A DNA stretch of 5,645 nt from Clostridia bacterium. Lineage in GTDB: Bacteria > Bacillota > Clostridia > Christensenellales > Aristaeellaceae. Below, one piece after another: positions 1 to 4,757 of the stretch. Within the stretch, counting starts at the first letter, position 1, and each line of letters begins with the position of its first letter. The notes beneath the pieces are model-generated. The model was not told where the DNA came from and did no database searches. It saw only the letters and a program-made list of their open reading frames with translations. Location of the stretch: contig JAUNDF010000030.1 of assembly GCA_030526225.1 (NCBI GenBank), positions 19,795 through 25,439 of the forward strand, given 5' to 3'. The position numbers and the translations under genes are program-made.

Positions 1-568
1 TGGGTTTGCCGCAGTGGGGGCAAACGGGCAGCAGCGCCGTGGGGATGCGCATATCCTGCTGATGGGCGACCATCTGCCGGATGATGGCCTCGTTGTCGAA
101 GGTCTCCTTGCAGCAGGGGGTGCTGCACTGGAACAGGCCGTAATCCCCCTGGGTGTAGAACAGGCGCTGTTTGTCGAACCCGGCCTTCTGAAAGCAGTGA
201 TCCACATTGGTGGTGATGACGAAGTAGTCCTTGTCCCGCACCAGCTGCAGCAGGGTGTCGTAGACGGGCTTGGGGGTATCCTCATAGCGGTTGATGTGGA
301 TGTAGCGGCTCCAGTAGGCCCAATGCTCCTCCGGGGTTTCATAGGGATAGAAGCCGCCGGAGTACATATCCGGGATACCGTAGACCTCGGCGAAATCCCC
401 GAAGTGCTTCAGAAAGCGCTCGCCGCTGTAGGTGAAGCCTGCCGATGCGGACAACCCTGCACCTGCGCCGATGAGCACCGTGTCGCAGGATTGCAGAGCG
501 GAGGTCAGCTGGTCAATCAGCCCGGAGCAGTCGGGTGTAGATGTCCTTGTCTGTGTCCTTGAAAACAT
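1..568 (-). CDS. sirTM: Class-M sirtuin (SirTM-type Sir2-family protein mono-ADP-ribosyltransferase). N-terminal ~189 codons only; the 3' end runs off the window.
   Basis: Absent from the supplied ORF track because it is open to the window edge. My manual minus-strand translation from ATG 568..566 gives MFSRTQTRTSTPDCSGLIDQLTSALQSCDTVLIGAGAGLSASAGFTYSGERFLKHFGDFAEVYGIPDMYSGGFYPYETPEEHWAYWSRYIHINRYEDTPKPVYDTLLQLVRDKDYFVITTNVDHCFQKAGFDKQRLFYTQGDYGLFQCSTPCCKETFDNEAIIRQMVAHQQDMRIPTALLPVCPHCGKP. It carries the Rossmann GAGAG motif, TTNVDH, QGDYG, and a Zn-ribbon Cys pattern (C..CC...CPHC). From memory it is collinear with the Streptococcus pyogenes SirTM. An SD-like AGGTGA (575..580) sits 6 nt upstream of the ATG. 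The start overlaps the macro gene by 56 nt, so its exact position is less certain than the product call. Confidence 0.85.
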   Translation of the reverse strand, partial: MFSRTQTRTSTPDCSGLIDQLTSALQSCDTVLIGAGAGLSASAGFTYSGERFLKHFGDFAEVYGIPDMYSGGFYPYETPEEHWAYWSRYIHINRYEDTPKPVYDTLLQLVRDKDYFVITTNVDHCFQKAGFDKQRLFYTQGDYGLFQCSTPCCKETFDNEAIIRQMVAHQQDMRIPTALLPVCPHCGKP

Positions 569-1307
569 TGAAAATCACCTTTTTGATACTCGTTTGCTGT
601 GTCATAAATTCCCGGACGGTCTGCAGCGCGATTTCTGCCGCCAGCTCATTGGGGAAGTGGAATTCTCCGGTGGAAATGCAGCAGAAGGCTACGCTTTCCA
701 GCTGGATGTCTGCCGCCAATGTCAGGCAGGCGCGGTAGCAGGAGGCCAGCAATTCCTTGTCCTTCTCCGTTACATCGCCCTGAATGATGGGCCCCACGGT
801 GTGCAGTACATACCTGCAGGGCAGATTAAAGGCCGGGGTGATTTTGGCCTGCCCTGTGGGTTCGGGATGCCCCTGCGCCGCCATCATGCAGTCACAGGCA
901 CGGCGCAGCTGCACCCCGGCAAAGGTGTGGATGGCGTTGTCGATGCAGCGATGATTGGGGGCATAGCAGCCGGTCATACCGCTGTTGGCGGCGTTGACGA
1001 TGGCATCGCACCGCAATGTGGTGATGTCCCCCTGCCACAGGTACAGCCCCGGCTGAAGGGGCGTCAAGTCGTCGACATCGGTGATGCCCTTCGATGCGAT
1101 TTCCTCCTTCAGGTATTCATCCTGCACGGCCAGAAAATCATCGCTGACAGGATCGGCCTCCCGGATGTTCATCAGCCCCCGGAGCATCAGCCACTGGCTT
1201 TCCGCATCCGTGGGAATGCGCCGTCCGCGAAAATCCCGGTTCTCATCCAGCAGGGCGCGCAGCAAAAACCGCCTGCGCCGGGCTTGGGTCATGGGTTGTT
1301 CGTTCAT
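513..1307 (-). CDS. MacroD-type macrodomain protein-ADP-ribose hydrolase (the SirTM-partnered class).
   Basis: This is the ORF-track entry 513..1319. Motifs seen: [24 protein letters not shown] and [11 protein letters not shown], the macrodomain ADP-ribose-binding signatures. The N-terminal helical extension ([16 protein letters not shown]...[25 protein letters not shown]) matches, from memory, the S. aureus/S. pyogenes SirTM-operon macrodomain. I prefer ATG 1307..1305 (MNEQPMTQ...) because GAGGTG (1312..1317) lies 4 nt upstream and the resulting length matches homologues. The alternative ATG 1319 forms an ATGA overlap with the DUF1848 stop. Confidence 0.9.
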   Translation of the reverse strand: [264 protein letters not shown]

Positions 1308-1315
1308 GGGGCACC

Positions 1316-2248
1316 TCATTCAAACAAGGTCAGCTGACGGTCGATGTAGGATTCCTGCCGGGCTTCAATCACCGTGTCGCCGGGCTGTGCACCACCGATG
1401 AGGAAGGGCGAGGCCGGGTCGTGTCGGCGGATGTTGCGCTCTACGGTTTTGCGGTCATAATTGGCGTAGCAGTAGATGCAGCCGTGGGGACAGGTGTTGT
1501 ACATGCCGATGTCGGCCCCCAGCAGGCAATTGCACTGGCTGCGGGTGGATTTCTTCGACCTGGGCACACGGAGGCGGCAGTCAGCGGCCTTTTCCAACAC
1601 GGCTTTCGTCATGCAACCGGATACATCTGCGCCGAATTCAGCCAATGCGGCGTTCTCACAGCAGGTGCGGATGGGAATGCCGTATCTCATGCCGATTTTG
1701 ACGAAAGCCTCCATCAACGCCGCCTGCTCCAGGGTGCTGACCGCCCGCACGGAGGGGAAGTTCCGCTTCGTCTTCTCGTACAGGTCGATGAAGCTGATGA
1801 CGCAGAAGCTCACCTTGCCGGCCATGGTGGATGCCATCCGCTCGAAGGACTTGATATGGAAGTCCATGGAATACTTCTCTGTGATGAAGATGGGGTCATA
1901 ACGCCAGCCCACAGCTTTCGCACCCACCTTTTCAGACAGCTGCGACACGGACTGCATCACCTTTCCGCAGTCCGGCACAAAGGGCTCAATTTCCCGGCCG
2001 TAGGGGGTAACGGTGACGAACCAGAACTGCCGGAAATCGTCCAGCTCGCTCAGGCGGGGCAGCATGGGGGCAGGGTTCTTCGTGCAGAAGCACAGGATAT
2101 CCACCACCTTGGGGTCCAGGCGATAGCGGATGACCTGATTGGGATGGTAGGGGTTCCGGGTGCACACAAAGCCCTCTCGGATGCGGTTGTAGAACCAATC
2201 GCTGTAATAGGCCGGAATGTCCGTCCGGCAGCCGGTGTTGAGTATCAT
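1316..2248 (-). CDS. DUF1848-family protein with a C-terminal CX3CX2C cluster (putative Fe-S / radical-SAM-like enzyme, function unknown).
   Basis: This is the ORF-track entry 1316..2263. The N-terminus MILNTGCRTDIPAYYSDWFYNRIREGFV..RNPYHPNQV is the DUF1848 signature as I remember it. The C-terminal NTCPHGCIYCYAN motif (C258/C262/C265 in track numbering, nt 1469..1492) has canonical CX3CX2C spacing, with upstream CNC and CC pairs. I prefer ATG 2248 (GGAG at 2258..2261, 9-nt spacer) over TTG 2263. Confidence 0.8.
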   Translation of the reverse strand: MILNTGCRTDIPAYYSDWFYNRIREGFVCTRNPYHPNQVIRYRLDPKVVDILCFCTKNPAPMLPRLSELDDFRQFWFVTVTPYGREIEPFVPDCGKVMQSVSQLSEKVGAKAVGWRYDPIFITEKYSMDFHIKSFERMASTMAGKVSFCVISFIDLYEKTKRNFPSVRAVSTLEQAALMEAFVKIGMRYGIPIRTCCENAALAEFGADVSGCMTKAVLEKAADCRLRVPRSKKSTRSQCNCLLGADIGMYNTCPHGCIYCYANYDRKTVERNIRRHDPASPFLIGGAQPGDTVIEARQESYIDRQLTLFE

Positions 2249-4443: not shown

Positions 4444-4501
4444 GGTGAGCCTCCTTGCTTGGCGGGACGCATGTCCGAAAGCACCGCGTTTGCCGTACCC
4501 T

Positions 4502-4539
4502 CGGAAATACGCCCCAGGATGATTCCTCGGGCGTATCCG
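4502..4539 (-). promoter_or_regulatory. Intercistronic RNA stem-loop between the peptide gene and the rSAM gene (candidate attenuator or processing/stability hairpin).
   Basis: On the plus strand, ATACGCCC (4507..4514) pairs perfectly with GGGCGTAT (4529..4536). An inner AGGA (4516..4519) pairs with TCCT (4524..4527), and an outer CGG (4502..4504) pairs with CCG (4537..4539) across a 2-nt bulge. It begins 6 nt after the peptide stop codon. There is no U-tract after it on the minus-strand RNA, so it is not a canonical intrinsic terminator. Confidence 0.55.
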
Positions 4540-4544
4540 GCTGA

Positions 4545-4757
4545 TTACTTGTCGCCGGCACCACAGGCAGAGCCGCAGGCAGCGGGAGCCTGAGCGGGCT
4601 TGTCAGCGGCACCGCAGGCAGCGGGCTGCTCGGCAGGCTTATCGGCGGCACCGCAAGCGGAGCCACAGGCAGCAGCGGGCTTATCGGAAGCACCGCAGGC
4701 GGCAGCAGGAGCGGCTTCGGCCTTCTTGGCCCAGCCGAAGAGGTTGGAAAGAGCCAT
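4545..4757 (-). CDS. ACGX-repeat peptide (70 aa, six Cys), a putative radical-SAM-modified precursor or carrier peptide.
   Basis: Translation from ATG 4757: MALSNLFGWAKKAEAAPAAACGASDKPAAACGSACGAADKPAEQPAACGAADKPAQAPAACGSACGAGDK. GGAGGG (4765..4770) lies 7 nt upstream of the ATG. There are six A-C-G-[A/S] motifs, and the gene sits immediately 5' of a radical SAM/SPASM gene on the same strand. The 120-aa version in the ORF track (to 4907) runs through the upstream terminator and has no RBS, so I use the shorter form. Confidence 0.85.
   Translation of the reverse strand: MALSNLFGWAKKAEAAPAAACGASDKPAAACGSACGAADKPAEQPAACGAADKPAQAPAACGSACGAGDK
4548..4706 (-). repeat. In-frame degenerate tandem repeat encoding the ACGX/DKP modules.
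   Basis: Related plus-strand units are gcgggcttgtcagcggcaccgcaggc (4594..4619), gcaggcttatcggcggcaccgcaagc (4633..4658) and gcgggcttatcggaagcaccgcaggc (4675..4700). They are spaced 39 and 42 nt apart (13 and 14 codons). The protein modules are AAACGASDKP / AAACGSACGAADKP / AEQPAACGAADKP / AQAPAACGSACGAGDK. Confidence 0.8.

Follow-up and report, generated by a model that had tools for sequence, protein, structure and literature searches.

The window analyzed here, a stretch of 5,645 nucleotides taken as a whole, comes from a gut Clostridia MAG and holds most of an operon of seven minus-strand genes read from position 4757 to 1. In order of transcription these encode an ACGX peptide, a radical SAM (rSAM)/SPASM maturase, a PNPOx-like protein, a nitroreductase, a DUF1848 protein, a Zn-macrodomain and SirTM. 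The features are as follows.

4932..5645, minus strand: upstream gene, 3' part; no Pfam family, weak MBL-fold match
4885..4916, minus strand: intrinsic terminator of the upstream gene, a 13-bp stem then a T-run (-35.8 kcal/mol, z -4.5)
4837..4852, minus strand: palindromic promoter element AAAAGT-GCGT-ACTTTT, with core GTGCGTACTT at 4848..4839, overlapping the -35 region
4812..4817, minus strand: -10 hexamer TACAAT, matched in 62 loci by TAcAAT/TAtAAT/TAtACT at an unvarying distance from the 10-mer core
4778..4807, minus strand: hairpin at the 5' end of the leader (CAGACAG/CTGTCTG), in the same place in 62/62 leaders, median z -3.0
4545..4757, minus strand: ACGX-repeat precursor peptide, 70 aa (TIGR04341, 87.7 bits vs a cut-off of 28)
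4474..4537, minus strand: two adjacent hairpins in the 101-nt peptide/rSAM spacer (z -4.4)
3409..4443, minus strand: radical SAM/SPASM maturase, 344 aa (TIGR04340, 601 bits vs a cut-off of 400; PF04055 and PF13186)
2843..3409, minus strand: PNPOx-like split-barrel flavoprotein, 188 aa (PF01243, E 2e-8), with a hydrophobic N-terminal extension
1986..2846, minus strand: nitroreductase-family flavoenzyme (PF00881 over residues 8-174, E 1e-23)
1316..2248, minus strand: DUF1848 protein, 310 aa (PF08902, 322 bits)
513..1319, minus strand: Zn-dependent MacroD-type macrodomain (Zn-Macro), 264-268 aa (NCBIfam PRK04143 protein-ADP-ribose hydrolase, 357 bits vs 272)
1..568, minus strand: class M sirtuin (SirTM), N-terminal 189 aa, Sir2-like, cut by the window end

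The initial annotation had described one tightly packed unit of seven same-strand genes with no room for internal promoters. This description holds, the TIGR, Pfam and NCBIfam profile matches agreeing with the gene identities and the stretch from the peptide to SirTM containing no convincing terminator or sigma-70-like promoter. A terminator scan returned six terminator-like matches against 4.3 ± 2.3 expected, those inside the operon being weak. The 101-nt spacer, the TGATG and ATGA junctions and the 56-nt macro/SirTM overlap are as first reported, but the DUF1848/macro junction is either ATGA or a gap of 8 nt, not 9 nt. The nitroreductase/DUF1848 overlap is also present, but it is 263-278 nt long and stems from a net 1-nt indel (junction alignment with the relative L087) that removed the nitroreductase stop codon; orthologues end in an ATGA overlap. 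Because the stop is lost, the reading frame runs out of frame over DUF1848 to 1986, the nitroreductase domain itself being complete by ~2252.

The strong terminator at 4916..4885 sets the operon apart from the upstream gene, which is a separate transcription unit, probably in the same regulon. Its product is 37% identical (E 4e-51) to that of the gene directly upstream of macro-SirTM in three other loci (L122, L124, L130), and its orthologue in L141 is a 309-aa lipoprotein gene with its own copy of GTGCGTACTT. Transcription of the ACGX operon is predicted to start at a promoter whose -35 region overlaps the palindrome AAAAGTGCGTACTTTT, a candidate operator of an HxlR-family regulator; as the -35 is poor, the -10 hexamer was missed by a simple consensus scan. 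The stem sequences of the leader hairpin vary from locus to locus. In 66/71 ACGX loci the exact 10-mer GTGCGTACTT keeps a fixed position, and it also occurs beside a divergent HxlR gene upstream of ~30 macro-SirTM operons lacking ACGX, against a chance expectation of ~4 exact copies in 2.18 Mb. The full element AAAAGTGCGTACTTTT is likewise kept upstream of both kinds of operon, usually beside a divergent HxlR-family gene. No HxlR gene lies within the window itself; one was found upstream of 55/64 ACGX loci and of 17/23 SirTM groups.

Regulators of the HxlR/DUF24 family such as YodB, QsrR and HypR govern thiol-stress regulons and control nitroreductases and quinone reductases. The ACGX loci resemble these regulons in their divergent HxlR-family gene, in the palindromic operator placed over the promoter and in having nitroreductase or quinone-reductase-type (Zn-ADH) genes under control, but the present operon also codes for a RiPP-like peptide system and an ADP-ribosylation pair. 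We do not know the operator sequence AAAAGTGCGTACTTTT from HxlR/DUF24 regulators. Judged from these sequences, the unifying feature of the loci is their regulation, through an apparently shared HxlR-type regulator and promoter element, which fits co-regulation as well as an enzyme-substrate relation.

The window peptide and maturase are full members of the ACGX system, being adjacent and both above the curated cut-offs. This system is known as database models (TIGR04340 rSAM_ACGX, TIGR04341 target_ACGX, Pfam PF27855 Target_ACGX); we found no paper describing it, and its constant flavoenzyme partners, HxlR regulator with operator and frequent SirTM/Zn-Macro fusion were not found in the literature searched. 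The peptide consists of a leader, MALSNLFGW, followed by modules of the form ACG[AS](ACGA)xDKP, and its gene contains a 39-nt tandem repeat and is preceded by the SD sequence AAGGAGG. Every module ends in C-G-x-x-D, in keeping with the earlier claim of an invariant Asp per repeat. Across the family, peptides range from 38 to 142 aa and are near-uniform between bacterial families: 94% of 463 Cys have Ala before them and 99% Gly after, position Cys+4 is Asp (52%) or Cys (43%), and 70 peptides contain 241 CGxxD units. Structure is present in the spacer following the peptide gene in 85% of 68 loci (median z -3.7), and the hairpins of this spacer are likely a partial terminator or a transcript-stabilising element.

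The maturase carries its CX3CX2C motif at C15/C19/C22 and shares 76-91% identity with homologues from at least 580 species. Across 80 loci the ACGX cluster has no conserved transporter, protease, leader peptidase or immunity gene; taken with this degree of maturase identity across families, this points to an intracellular role in housekeeping or stress. The core of the system, with or without SirTM, also includes PNPOx-type flavoproteins and a nitroreductase or ADH. The PNPOx-like protein in the window shares 68% identity with its L141 orthologue, in which an N-terminal TM helix is likewise present, and 30% (E 9e-18) with the small PNPOx proteins encoded at SirTM loci.

Maturase chemistry is at present a guess, the enzyme scoring far below the cut-offs of both characterised relatives considered, namely SbtM (156 bits over residues 4-339 vs 350), the closest characterised rSAM HMM, and PapB (55.9 bits vs 340). 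PapB/freyrasin-type ranthipeptides have Cys-Asp thioethers in CX3D motifs. The ACGX system shares with them repeated C-x3-D units and an rSAM/SPASM maturase, but half of its Cys lie in CX3C rather than CX3D and its loci lack export or protease genes. SbtM, also an rSAM/SPASM enzyme, forms thio(seleno)oxazoles at Gly-Cys (PMC9204691). The ACGX maturase would similarly modify a Gly-adjacent Cys of a short peptide, giving a product that retains reactive sulfur; it differs from SbtM in lacking the additional N-terminal domain, and its substrate in having the motif Ala-Cys-Gly rather than Gly-Cys/Sec and no selenocysteine.

Both ADP-ribosylation enzymes were correctly identified at the outset, with their signatures intact. 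The macrodomain has the NAAN, Cx4HxC and Dx3H motifs of the Zn-Macro set (PMC11490716) and matches PDB entries 8rsi (2e-77) and 5kiv (2e-71). The part of SirTM in the window contains TTNVD and YTQGDYG (QG in place of HG) and shares 74% identity with its L008 orthologue, itself a match to SpySirTM 5a3a at 2e-74. A macro/SirTM overlap of 53-56 nt is conserved in L002, L087, L091 and L093. DUF1848, which has an invariant C-terminal CX3CX2C motif and a TIM-barrel-like AF2 model, occupies the same position in L087-90 and forms stand-alone trios with macro and SirTM, with no ACGX genes nearby, in Coriobacteriia and elsewhere (L091-94, L110, L152, L162). It belongs to the macro/SirTM module.

Linkage of the two modules recurs across genomes, a point that the initial annotation had proposed to check. 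Sampling covered the 80 closest relatives in each direction, and these loci are mutually related or exchanged by HGT and so not independent. Of the 52 species loci whose flanks are long enough, 26 have SirTM on the same strand as the ACGX rSAM gene and 0.6-2.8 kb downstream of it, macro being present in 21 of them. At least nine gene orders occur, including NTR-PNPOxFer4-Macro-SirTM, NTR-Macro-SirTM, ADH-SirTM and NTR-DUF1848-Macro-SirTM, and the carriers include the Synergistota genus Pyramidobacter (L075). Linkage has been gained or lost at least 12 times by the SirTM tree and 14 times by the rSAM tree, and the association is far beyond chance. SirTM and macro are missing near 24/52 ACGX loci, for example in isolate KGMB03038, at least five fully flanked ACGX loci have SirTM but not macro, and the 18/23 SirTM loci without ACGX yielded no ACGX-like small ORF. 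The two modules are thus separable and have been joined repeatedly in evolution, and no paper was found on their combination, which had been thought undescribed. The suggestion that the genes upstream of macro form one block replacing GcvH-L/LplA2 did not stand, the flavoenzymes being part of the ACGX core and DUF1848 travelling with macro-SirTM.

The extended SirTM operon of Staphylococcus aureus and Streptococcus pyogenes comprises gcvH-L, Zn-Macro, sirTM, lplA2 and OYE and LLM flavoenzymes (Rack et al. 2015, PMC4518038; PMC11490716; PMC12440151), and the residue that its SirTM targets is Asp27 of lipoyl-GcvH-L, a dithiol carrier whose lipoate is thereby shielded from oxidation (PMC4518038, PMC12440151). 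The window operon is similar in its adjacent, partly overlapping Zn-Macro and SirTM genes with all catalytic signatures, its associated flavin oxidoreductases, a small sulfur-bearing carrier upstream (the Cys-rich ACGX peptide in place of lipoyl-GcvH-L) with an acidic residue near the sulfur group, and a link to oxidative stress, here presumed from the HxlR regulator. In contrast, it lacks GcvH-L and LplA2, genes for which were found neither in the window nor in the relatives' flanks (none in 168 loci). Its candidate carrier is a repeat peptide matured by radical SAM/SPASM chemistry rather than lipoate ligation, the flavoenzymes are of nitroreductase, PNPOx or Zn-ADH rather than OYE/LLM type, an HxlR regulator with a conserved operator accompanies ACGX loci, and the hosts are strictly anaerobic gut commensals.

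We propose, at about even confidence, that the loci form a redox/electrophile-stress regulon, with either a sulfur-rich modified peptide or a flavoprotein partner being gated by reversible ADP-ribosylation. Module A would be the ACGX system, that is, the precursor with its A-C-G-x-(A-C-G-x)-x-D-K-P units, the maturase, the nitroreductase and the PNPOx-like protein, and module B would be DUF1848, Zn-Macro and SirTM. As in HxlR/YodB/QsrR-type regulons, the operon would respond to thiol-reactive oxidants or electrophiles. The rSAM enzyme may oxidise Cys of the A-C-G motifs, perhaps to thiooxazoles as SbtM does, or alternatively form Cys-Asp thioethers at CX3D units. The resulting intracellular peptide would buffer redox or metal stress, with the flavoenzymes maturing it or keeping it reduced. 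SirTM would use NAD+ to mono-ADP-ribosylate some component of the ACGX system, with the modified peptide as leading candidate and its invariant Asp or a Cys as acceptor residue, and Zn-Macro would take the mark off. Cys is as much a candidate as Asp because Zn-Macros remove ADP-ribose from Cys as well as Asp/Glu (PMC11490716). Activity would thereby be gated, much as ADP-ribosylation protects lipoyl-GcvH-L in S. aureus.

It is quite possible, if somewhat doubtful, that the modules are only co-regulated, with SirTM/Zn-Macro a pair that generally ends HxlR-controlled stress operons, ACGX one of several cargo modules, and the target a co-encoded flavoprotein (PNPOx-type/nitroreductase), DUF1848 or a protein encoded elsewhere. 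The genes that precede macro-SirTM behind one HxlR/GTGCGTACTT promoter are indeed varied (SnoaL lipoprotein-PNPOx-ECF S component-PNPOxFer4, PNPOx alone, a homologue of the window's upstream gene, or none), and the DUF1848-macro-SirTM trio stands alone. ACGX lies upstream in only 5/23 dereplicated SirTM groups, against 12/23 for a flavoprotein (PNPOx-type in 9/23). Even so, 'any flavoprotein' reaches only those 12 groups, and no family except macro accompanies SirTM in all loci. Seen from the ACGX side, the ACGX module is the commonest defined multi-gene partner (26/52), the start/stop overlaps suggest translational coupling inside one unit, and genomes with a lone pair could still encode ACGX outside the sampled loci.

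That DUF1848 is the functional partner of macro/SirTM, as substrate or as an Fe-S enzyme whose own substrate derives from ADP-ribose or NAD, with the ACGX genes unrelated neighbours, is improbable. It sits immediately upstream of macro, where gcvH-L sits, both in the window and in the ACGX-free trios, and its invariant cysteine motif would suit such a role, but it is missing from all 80 ACGX species loci, including 26 with SirTM, and occurs in only 1/23 SirTM groups, so it is not a general target; structure and fold searches gave no functional lead. More improbable still is an exported, ranthipeptide-like antimicrobial RiPP with SirTM/macro as self-immunity or accidental neighbour, which the PapB/freyrasin-like CX3D units, the typical pairing of rSAM/SPASM enzyme and short peptide, and mobile-element genes adjoining L001 and L003 would favor, but against which stand the lack of conserved export and immunity genes noted above, a peptide and maturase conserved to a degree unlike bacteriocins, constant companions that are flavin oxidoreductases and a redox-type regulator, and linkage in several gene orders, which excludes an accidental neighbourhood.

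Under the proposed gating of the ACGX system by reversible ADP-ribosylation, the ACGX/SirTM pairing offers a testable candidate for the targets of these ADP-ribosylation enzymes.

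Seven genes lie head to tail on the minus strand of the window, preceded by a palindrome and by the terminator of the gene upstream.

Features of the window in the direction of transcription
4916..4885: strong intrinsic terminator, ending the gene upstream of the peptide gene
4852..4837, minus strand: palindrome AAAAGT-GCGT-ACTTTT with core 10-mer GTGCGTACTT, candidate HxlR-family target AAAAGTGCGTACTTTT
Beginning at 4757, minus strand: ACGX-repeat peptide, 70 aa (TIGR04341, 87.7 bits against a cut-off of 28)
101 nt after the peptide gene, minus strand: radical SAM/SPASM enzyme (TIGR04340, 601 bits against a cut-off of 400)
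Third gene, minus strand: PNPOx-like protein, 188 aa
Fourth gene, minus strand: nitroreductase, its ORF overrunning the DUF1848 gene
Fifth gene, minus strand: DUF1848 protein (PF08902 over the full-length model, 322 bits against 30.5)
Sixth gene, minus strand: macrodomain protein (NCBIfam PRK04143, "protein-ADP-ribose hydrolase", 357 bits against 272)
Seventh gene, minus strand: Sir2-like protein, first 189 residues, leaving the window at its end

The 101-nt spacer between the peptide and radical SAM (rSAM) genes folds in the window into two adjacent hairpins (z -4.4). The later junctions are, in order, TGATG, ATGA and, before the macrodomain gene, either ATGA or an 8-nt gap with a second ATG, followed by a 56-nt overlap of the macrodomain and sirtuin genes (window 513-568). 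Inspection of the sequence agrees with the initial annotation on these junctions, with 8 nt for the alternative gap and the nitroreductase/DUF1848 junction as the sole anomaly, and a scan of the window for terminators and promoters found nothing convincing inside the seven genes, in keeping with the uninterrupted operon it had described. An Rfam scan of the window returned nothing credible. A designed long overlap of nitroreductase and DUF1848 was rejected because the nitroreductase orthologues (200 aa) stop within an ordinary ATGA overlap with the next gene and the window frame is shifted by 1 nt; a net 1-nt indel has removed the stop and added 88 codons out of frame over DUF1848 (1986-2263, minus strand). 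The overrun is either a real mutation giving a C-terminal extension or an error of the MAG assembly. The DUF1848 protein of the window is 100% identical to an NCBI MAG protein (P0121). The PNPOx-like protein carries a hydrophobic N-terminal extension of ~28 aa, MMKKCLALLCALLMLTALIPSALC (window 3326-3409, minus strand); an N-terminal TM helix is likewise present in its orthologue in L141, one of the relatives' loci compared with the window (6172-6876, 68% identical), and is missing from PNPOx homologues of other loci, suggesting a membrane-anchored or exported flavoprotein.

The sirtuin fragment reads ...LFYTQGDYGLFQCS, with QG in place of the catalytic HG, the swap by which class M sirtuins are defined (Gln137 in SpySirTM; PMC4518038). 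We compared it with the class for this motif, for Asn118, Arg192 and GVGx[NT]TP, and for linkage to a Zn-containing macrodomain. The QG motif is invariant in nine SirTM orthologues and aligns with IQGEYGLWQCS of SpySirTM (5a3a). TTNVD, with the conserved Asn, and YTQGDYG are visible in the fragment; the Arg and GVGYNTP fall past the window end and are invariant in full-length orthologues, which are 72-74% identical to the fragment over the common part and match 5a3a at 2e-74. The QG signature and this match bear out the assignment to SirTM, and ADP-ribosyltransferase function without deacylase activity, a trait of the class, is predicted here. The macrodomain matches 8rsi (2e-77) and S. aureus 5kiv (2e-71) over its whole length including the N-terminal extension, and covers PRK04143 profile positions 2-261 of 265. 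It has the features that define the Zn-Macro subfamily, namely a Cx4HxC Zn-loop replacing the Gly-rich catalytic loop, NAAN and Dx3H (PMC11490716), all aligned with 8rsi and 5kiv, and residues 9-90, a putative three-helix bundle, align fully with the N-termini of both. An out-of-frame macro/SirTM overlap of 53-56 nt is kept in distant loci (L002, L087, L091 and L093), and in fungi the two are fused into one protein (PMC4518038), together suggesting obligatory translational coupling.

In the GcvH-L/LplA2 type of extended SirTM operon, the only one on record in the literature searched, gcvH-L and lplA2 flank macro-SirTM; in the window, by contrast, neither is present. Pfam found no GCV_H or lipoate-ligase domain in the window or in the flanks of L001-6, L087-94 and L175-177, the relatives' loci from which the flanks beyond window position 1 were judged. 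Consistent with these tables, tblastn gave no GcvH or LplA match in 168 loci, using approximate E. coli queries in a search weaker than a profile search. The initial annotation had proposed to look for both genes past position 1; in the relatives' flanks neither method found them.

The maturase family comprises 3578 proteins at E <= 1e-30, and identity is 77% or higher throughout the best 120. When one genome per GTDB species was scanned, maturase relatives turned up in at least 580 species. We analyzed the 80 closest (Oscillospiraceae, Lachnospiraceae, Ruminococcaceae, Acutalibacteraceae and one Pyramidobacter); 52 of their loci extend at least 4.5 kb past the rSAM gene on its downstream side and form the linkage sample. 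Downstream of rSAM, 21 of the 52 have macro and SirTM, five SirTM without macro, two macro without SirTM and 24 neither. When found, macro and SirTM are always on the strand of rSAM, 0.6-2.8 kb beyond its stop, in nine intervening gene orders, the commonest being NTR-PNPOxFer4-Macro-SirTM, PNPOxFer4-Macro-SirTM and NTR-Macro-SirTM (NTR, nitroreductase; PNPOxFer4, PNPOx-ferredoxin fusion); one more organism has ADH-Fer4NTR-NTR-Macro-SirTM. The proposed ACGX-SirTM linkage therefore recurs in other genomes, with SirTM in 26 of 52 species loci. On the rSAM tree, SirTM presence switches 14 times, and on a SirTM tree with 74 tips the ACGX-linked state does so at least 12 times; the association has therefore formed and dissolved again and again instead of being passed down from a single event. 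SirTM follows the ACGX-module genes directly, with macro absent, in L026, L030, L042, L044, L050, L051, L056, L058, L138, L141 and L172, a flavin reductase standing where macro would be in L141; at such loci ADP-ribosylation may proceed unopposed, or else the gene for the hydrolase may lie at another site. Maturases from different families, and even one from a Synergistota genome (L075, Pyramidobacter), remain 76-91% identical, and in L001 and L003 the operon is adjoined by Mob_Pre, RepA_N and resolvase genes. This identity and these neighbors suggest horizontal spread plus strong constraint.

A divergent HxlR-family gene stands just 5' of the peptide gene in 55 of 64 ACGX loci. Alignment of the promoters revealed the invariant 10-mer GTGCGTACTT, followed after ~20 nt by a TAcAAT-type -10 box, at a fixed place in 66 of 71 ACGX loci (L002-L086) and in the window. 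The same 10-mer precedes ~30 ACGX-less macro-SirTM operons (L097-L172), beside HxlR genes; chance alone would place about four exact copies in the 2.18 Mb of sequence covered. The surrounding palindrome, a candidate operator, would mark out a single regulon in several bacterial families, and the strongest argument for assigning the ACGX system and the SirTM pair to the same regulon is this common 10-mer. In L141, the locus nearest the window in gene order, one copy lies before the upstream lipoprotein gene and another before the peptide gene, and the HxlR gene of the window is therefore probably just past 5645. The window counterpart of that lipoprotein gene (4932-5645, minus strand) belongs to no Pfam family and has a weak MBL-fold match; its homologues (37% identity, E 4e-51) directly precede macro-SirTM in ACGX-less loci L122, L124 and L130, and it is probably in the same regulon as the operon. 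The leader forms a 5' hairpin in all 62 loci examined (window 4778-4807, minus strand), counted by per-sequence folding since RNAalifold on the indel-bearing promoter/leader alignment gave no consensus. Its stems vary (CAGAGAG/CTCTG, CAAACG/CGTTTG, CGGAC/GTCCG, GGATCAGG/CCTGATTTCC) and matched no Rfam family; it is probably an RNA-level element, for example an mRNA stabilizer. In 85% of loci the spacer between the peptide and rSAM genes is structured as well, and this pattern of structured leader and spacer would give an excess of precursor transcript, as is common in RiPP operons.

Neighbor clustering gives an ACGX core of peptide, rSAM, and nitroreductase (41 of 52 loci) or Zn-type ADH (9 of 52), joined in 39 loci by a PNPOx domain of ~205 aa fused to a 2x[4Fe-4S] ferredoxin and occasionally by a flavin reductase or a DUF5131 protein. 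These flavoenzymes cluster with ACGX with or without SirTM and are therefore members of the ACGX system. The DUF5131 protein (~295 aa, Cys-rich motifs), a putative Fe-S enzyme and a further uncharacterized attachment to this system, ends ACGX operons with or without SirTM (L028, L039, L064, L074, L076, L079, L128, L138 and L154).

A second search started from SirTM. The SirTM-alignment metagenome scan yielded 80 loci, 69-85% identical to the first query sequence (the L008 SirTM); dereplication at 95% left 23 groups with at least 4.5 kb upstream. Macro lies upstream in 19 of the 23, directly 5' of SirTM as in the window and the 21 ACGX loci, a divergent HxlR gene in 17, PNPOx-ferredoxin in nine, the ACGX rSAM in five and DUF1848 in one. 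Other cargo includes a series of SnoaL-like lipoprotein, PNPOx, ECF S component and PNPOxFer4, or a lone small PNPOx; no ACGX-like or other Cys-Gly-rich small ORFs were found in ACGX-less SirTM loci. DUF1848 occurs in none of the 80 ACGX species loci. Its closest homologues are either in window-like loci (L087-90: HxlR divergent, peptide-rSAM-NTR-DUF1848-Macro-SirTM) or in stand-alone DUF1848-Macro-SirTM trios without ACGX genes (L091-L094, L110, L152 and L162), for example in Paratractidigestivibacter (Coriobacteriia), which makes it an accessory to macro/SirTM. With the flavoenzymes in the ACGX core and DUF1848 in the macro/SirTM module, the suggestion that the whole block upstream of macro replaces GcvH-L/LplA2 does not hold. 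In its AF2 model (pLDDT 78.6) DUF1848 resembles a TIM barrel, and its C-terminal CX3CX2C is invariant; a PDB sequence profile search found no match and Foldseek with the model returned only generic TIM barrels (best TM-score ~0.3), neither search pointing to a function.

The 70 distinct peptides have a common leader, MALSNLFGW, followed by 2 to >9 modules; length varies from 38 to 142 aa between species (L002-L086) and the unit ACG[ST]ACGAxDKP is kept. The window gene carries a 39-nt tandem repeat (4573-4655). Among 463 Cys, Ala precedes 94% and Gly follows 99%; at the fourth residue after Cys, Asp accounts for 52% and Cys for 43%. All modules end in CGxxDK(P), and the invariant Asp per repeat noticed in the window thus extends to every distinct peptide. 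No transporter or protease is conserved near ACGX. The maturase has the cluster motif C15-x3-C19-x2-C22 (PF04055, E 9e-20), its Cys invariant in 17 homologues, and a SPASM domain (PF13186, 26.6 bits against 21.5). SbtM, its best-scoring characterized relative, converts Cys beside Gly to a thio(seleno)oxazole keeping reactive sulfur (PMC9204691). The maturase is outside that family (156 bits against the TIGR04082 cut-off of 350) and its substrate is Ala-Cys-Gly, not Gly-Cys/Sec; by analogy, it may nonetheless act like SbtM. The alternative would be Cys-Asp thioethers of the PapB type at the CX3D units of the substrate, which are present although the maturase is no PapB-type member either (55.9 bits against the NF047865 cut-off of 340).

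YodB, QsrR and HypR are the precedents for control by thiol-reactive stress through HxlR-type regulators, and on that basis such stress would act on the operon through an HxlR-type regulator. The product would be an intracellular sulfur-rich peptide that the rSAM enzyme matures and the flavoenzymes service, and SirTM would reversibly ADP-ribosylate this peptide or a partner protein by analogy with lipoyl-GcvH-L, in which ADP-ribosylation at Asp27 shields the dithiol from oxidation (PMC4518038; PMC12440151). Zn-Macros take ADP-ribose off acidic residues and, uniquely, Cys (PMC11490716), and the invariant Asp and the Cys are therefore both candidate sites. That the ACGX and macro/SirTM modules are functionally coupled within one stress regulon seems to us an evenly balanced proposition. 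Pure co-regulation, with the SirTM target elsewhere than the peptide, is a serious possibility if short of an even chance. Because the modules also occur apart, we advance only tentatively, and with some doubt, the reading in which the rSAM-modified ACGX peptide is a ribosomally made sulfur carrier analogous to lipoyl-GcvH-L, its Asp or Cys marked by SirTM and unmarked by Zn-Macro.

A locus with this gene content and operon packing, a recurring fusion of modules, a common regulator and promoter element and intact catalytic signatures adds a second type to the extended SirTM operons; the common candidate HxlR operator and the DUF1848-macro-SirTM trio are further observations. The literature searched held no paper on SirTM with radical SAM, on macrodomain/sirtuin with SPASM, or on SirTM with RiPP, HxlR or nitroreductase, none on the ACGX system, no discussion of DUF1848 in this context and no description of its partnership with Zn-Macro and SirTM, in line with the view that the combined system is undescribed. 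A 2024 study gives GcvH-L as the sole known SirTM substrate and lists the targets and roles of other SirTM/Zn-Macro pairs as unknown (PMC11490716). The locus and its relatives supply a recurrent SirTM partner, comprising a defined peptide, its maturase, two or three flavoenzymes and a common regulator and operator, which makes the question of the SirTM target directly testable with few recombinant proteins. If the proposal is true, the peptide would be the second known SirTM substrate and the first RiPP-like peptide regulated by ADP-ribosylation, within a widespread HxlR-controlled redox-defense system of anaerobic gut bacteria. The ACGX system reaches at least 580 species with a maturase this similar across gut-anaerobe families, yet had no paper in that literature; its constant pairing with flavin oxidoreductases and a thiol-stress-type regulator suggests that the human gut microbiota holds, in the ACGX peptide, an abundant redox or metal buffer that has yet to be studied.
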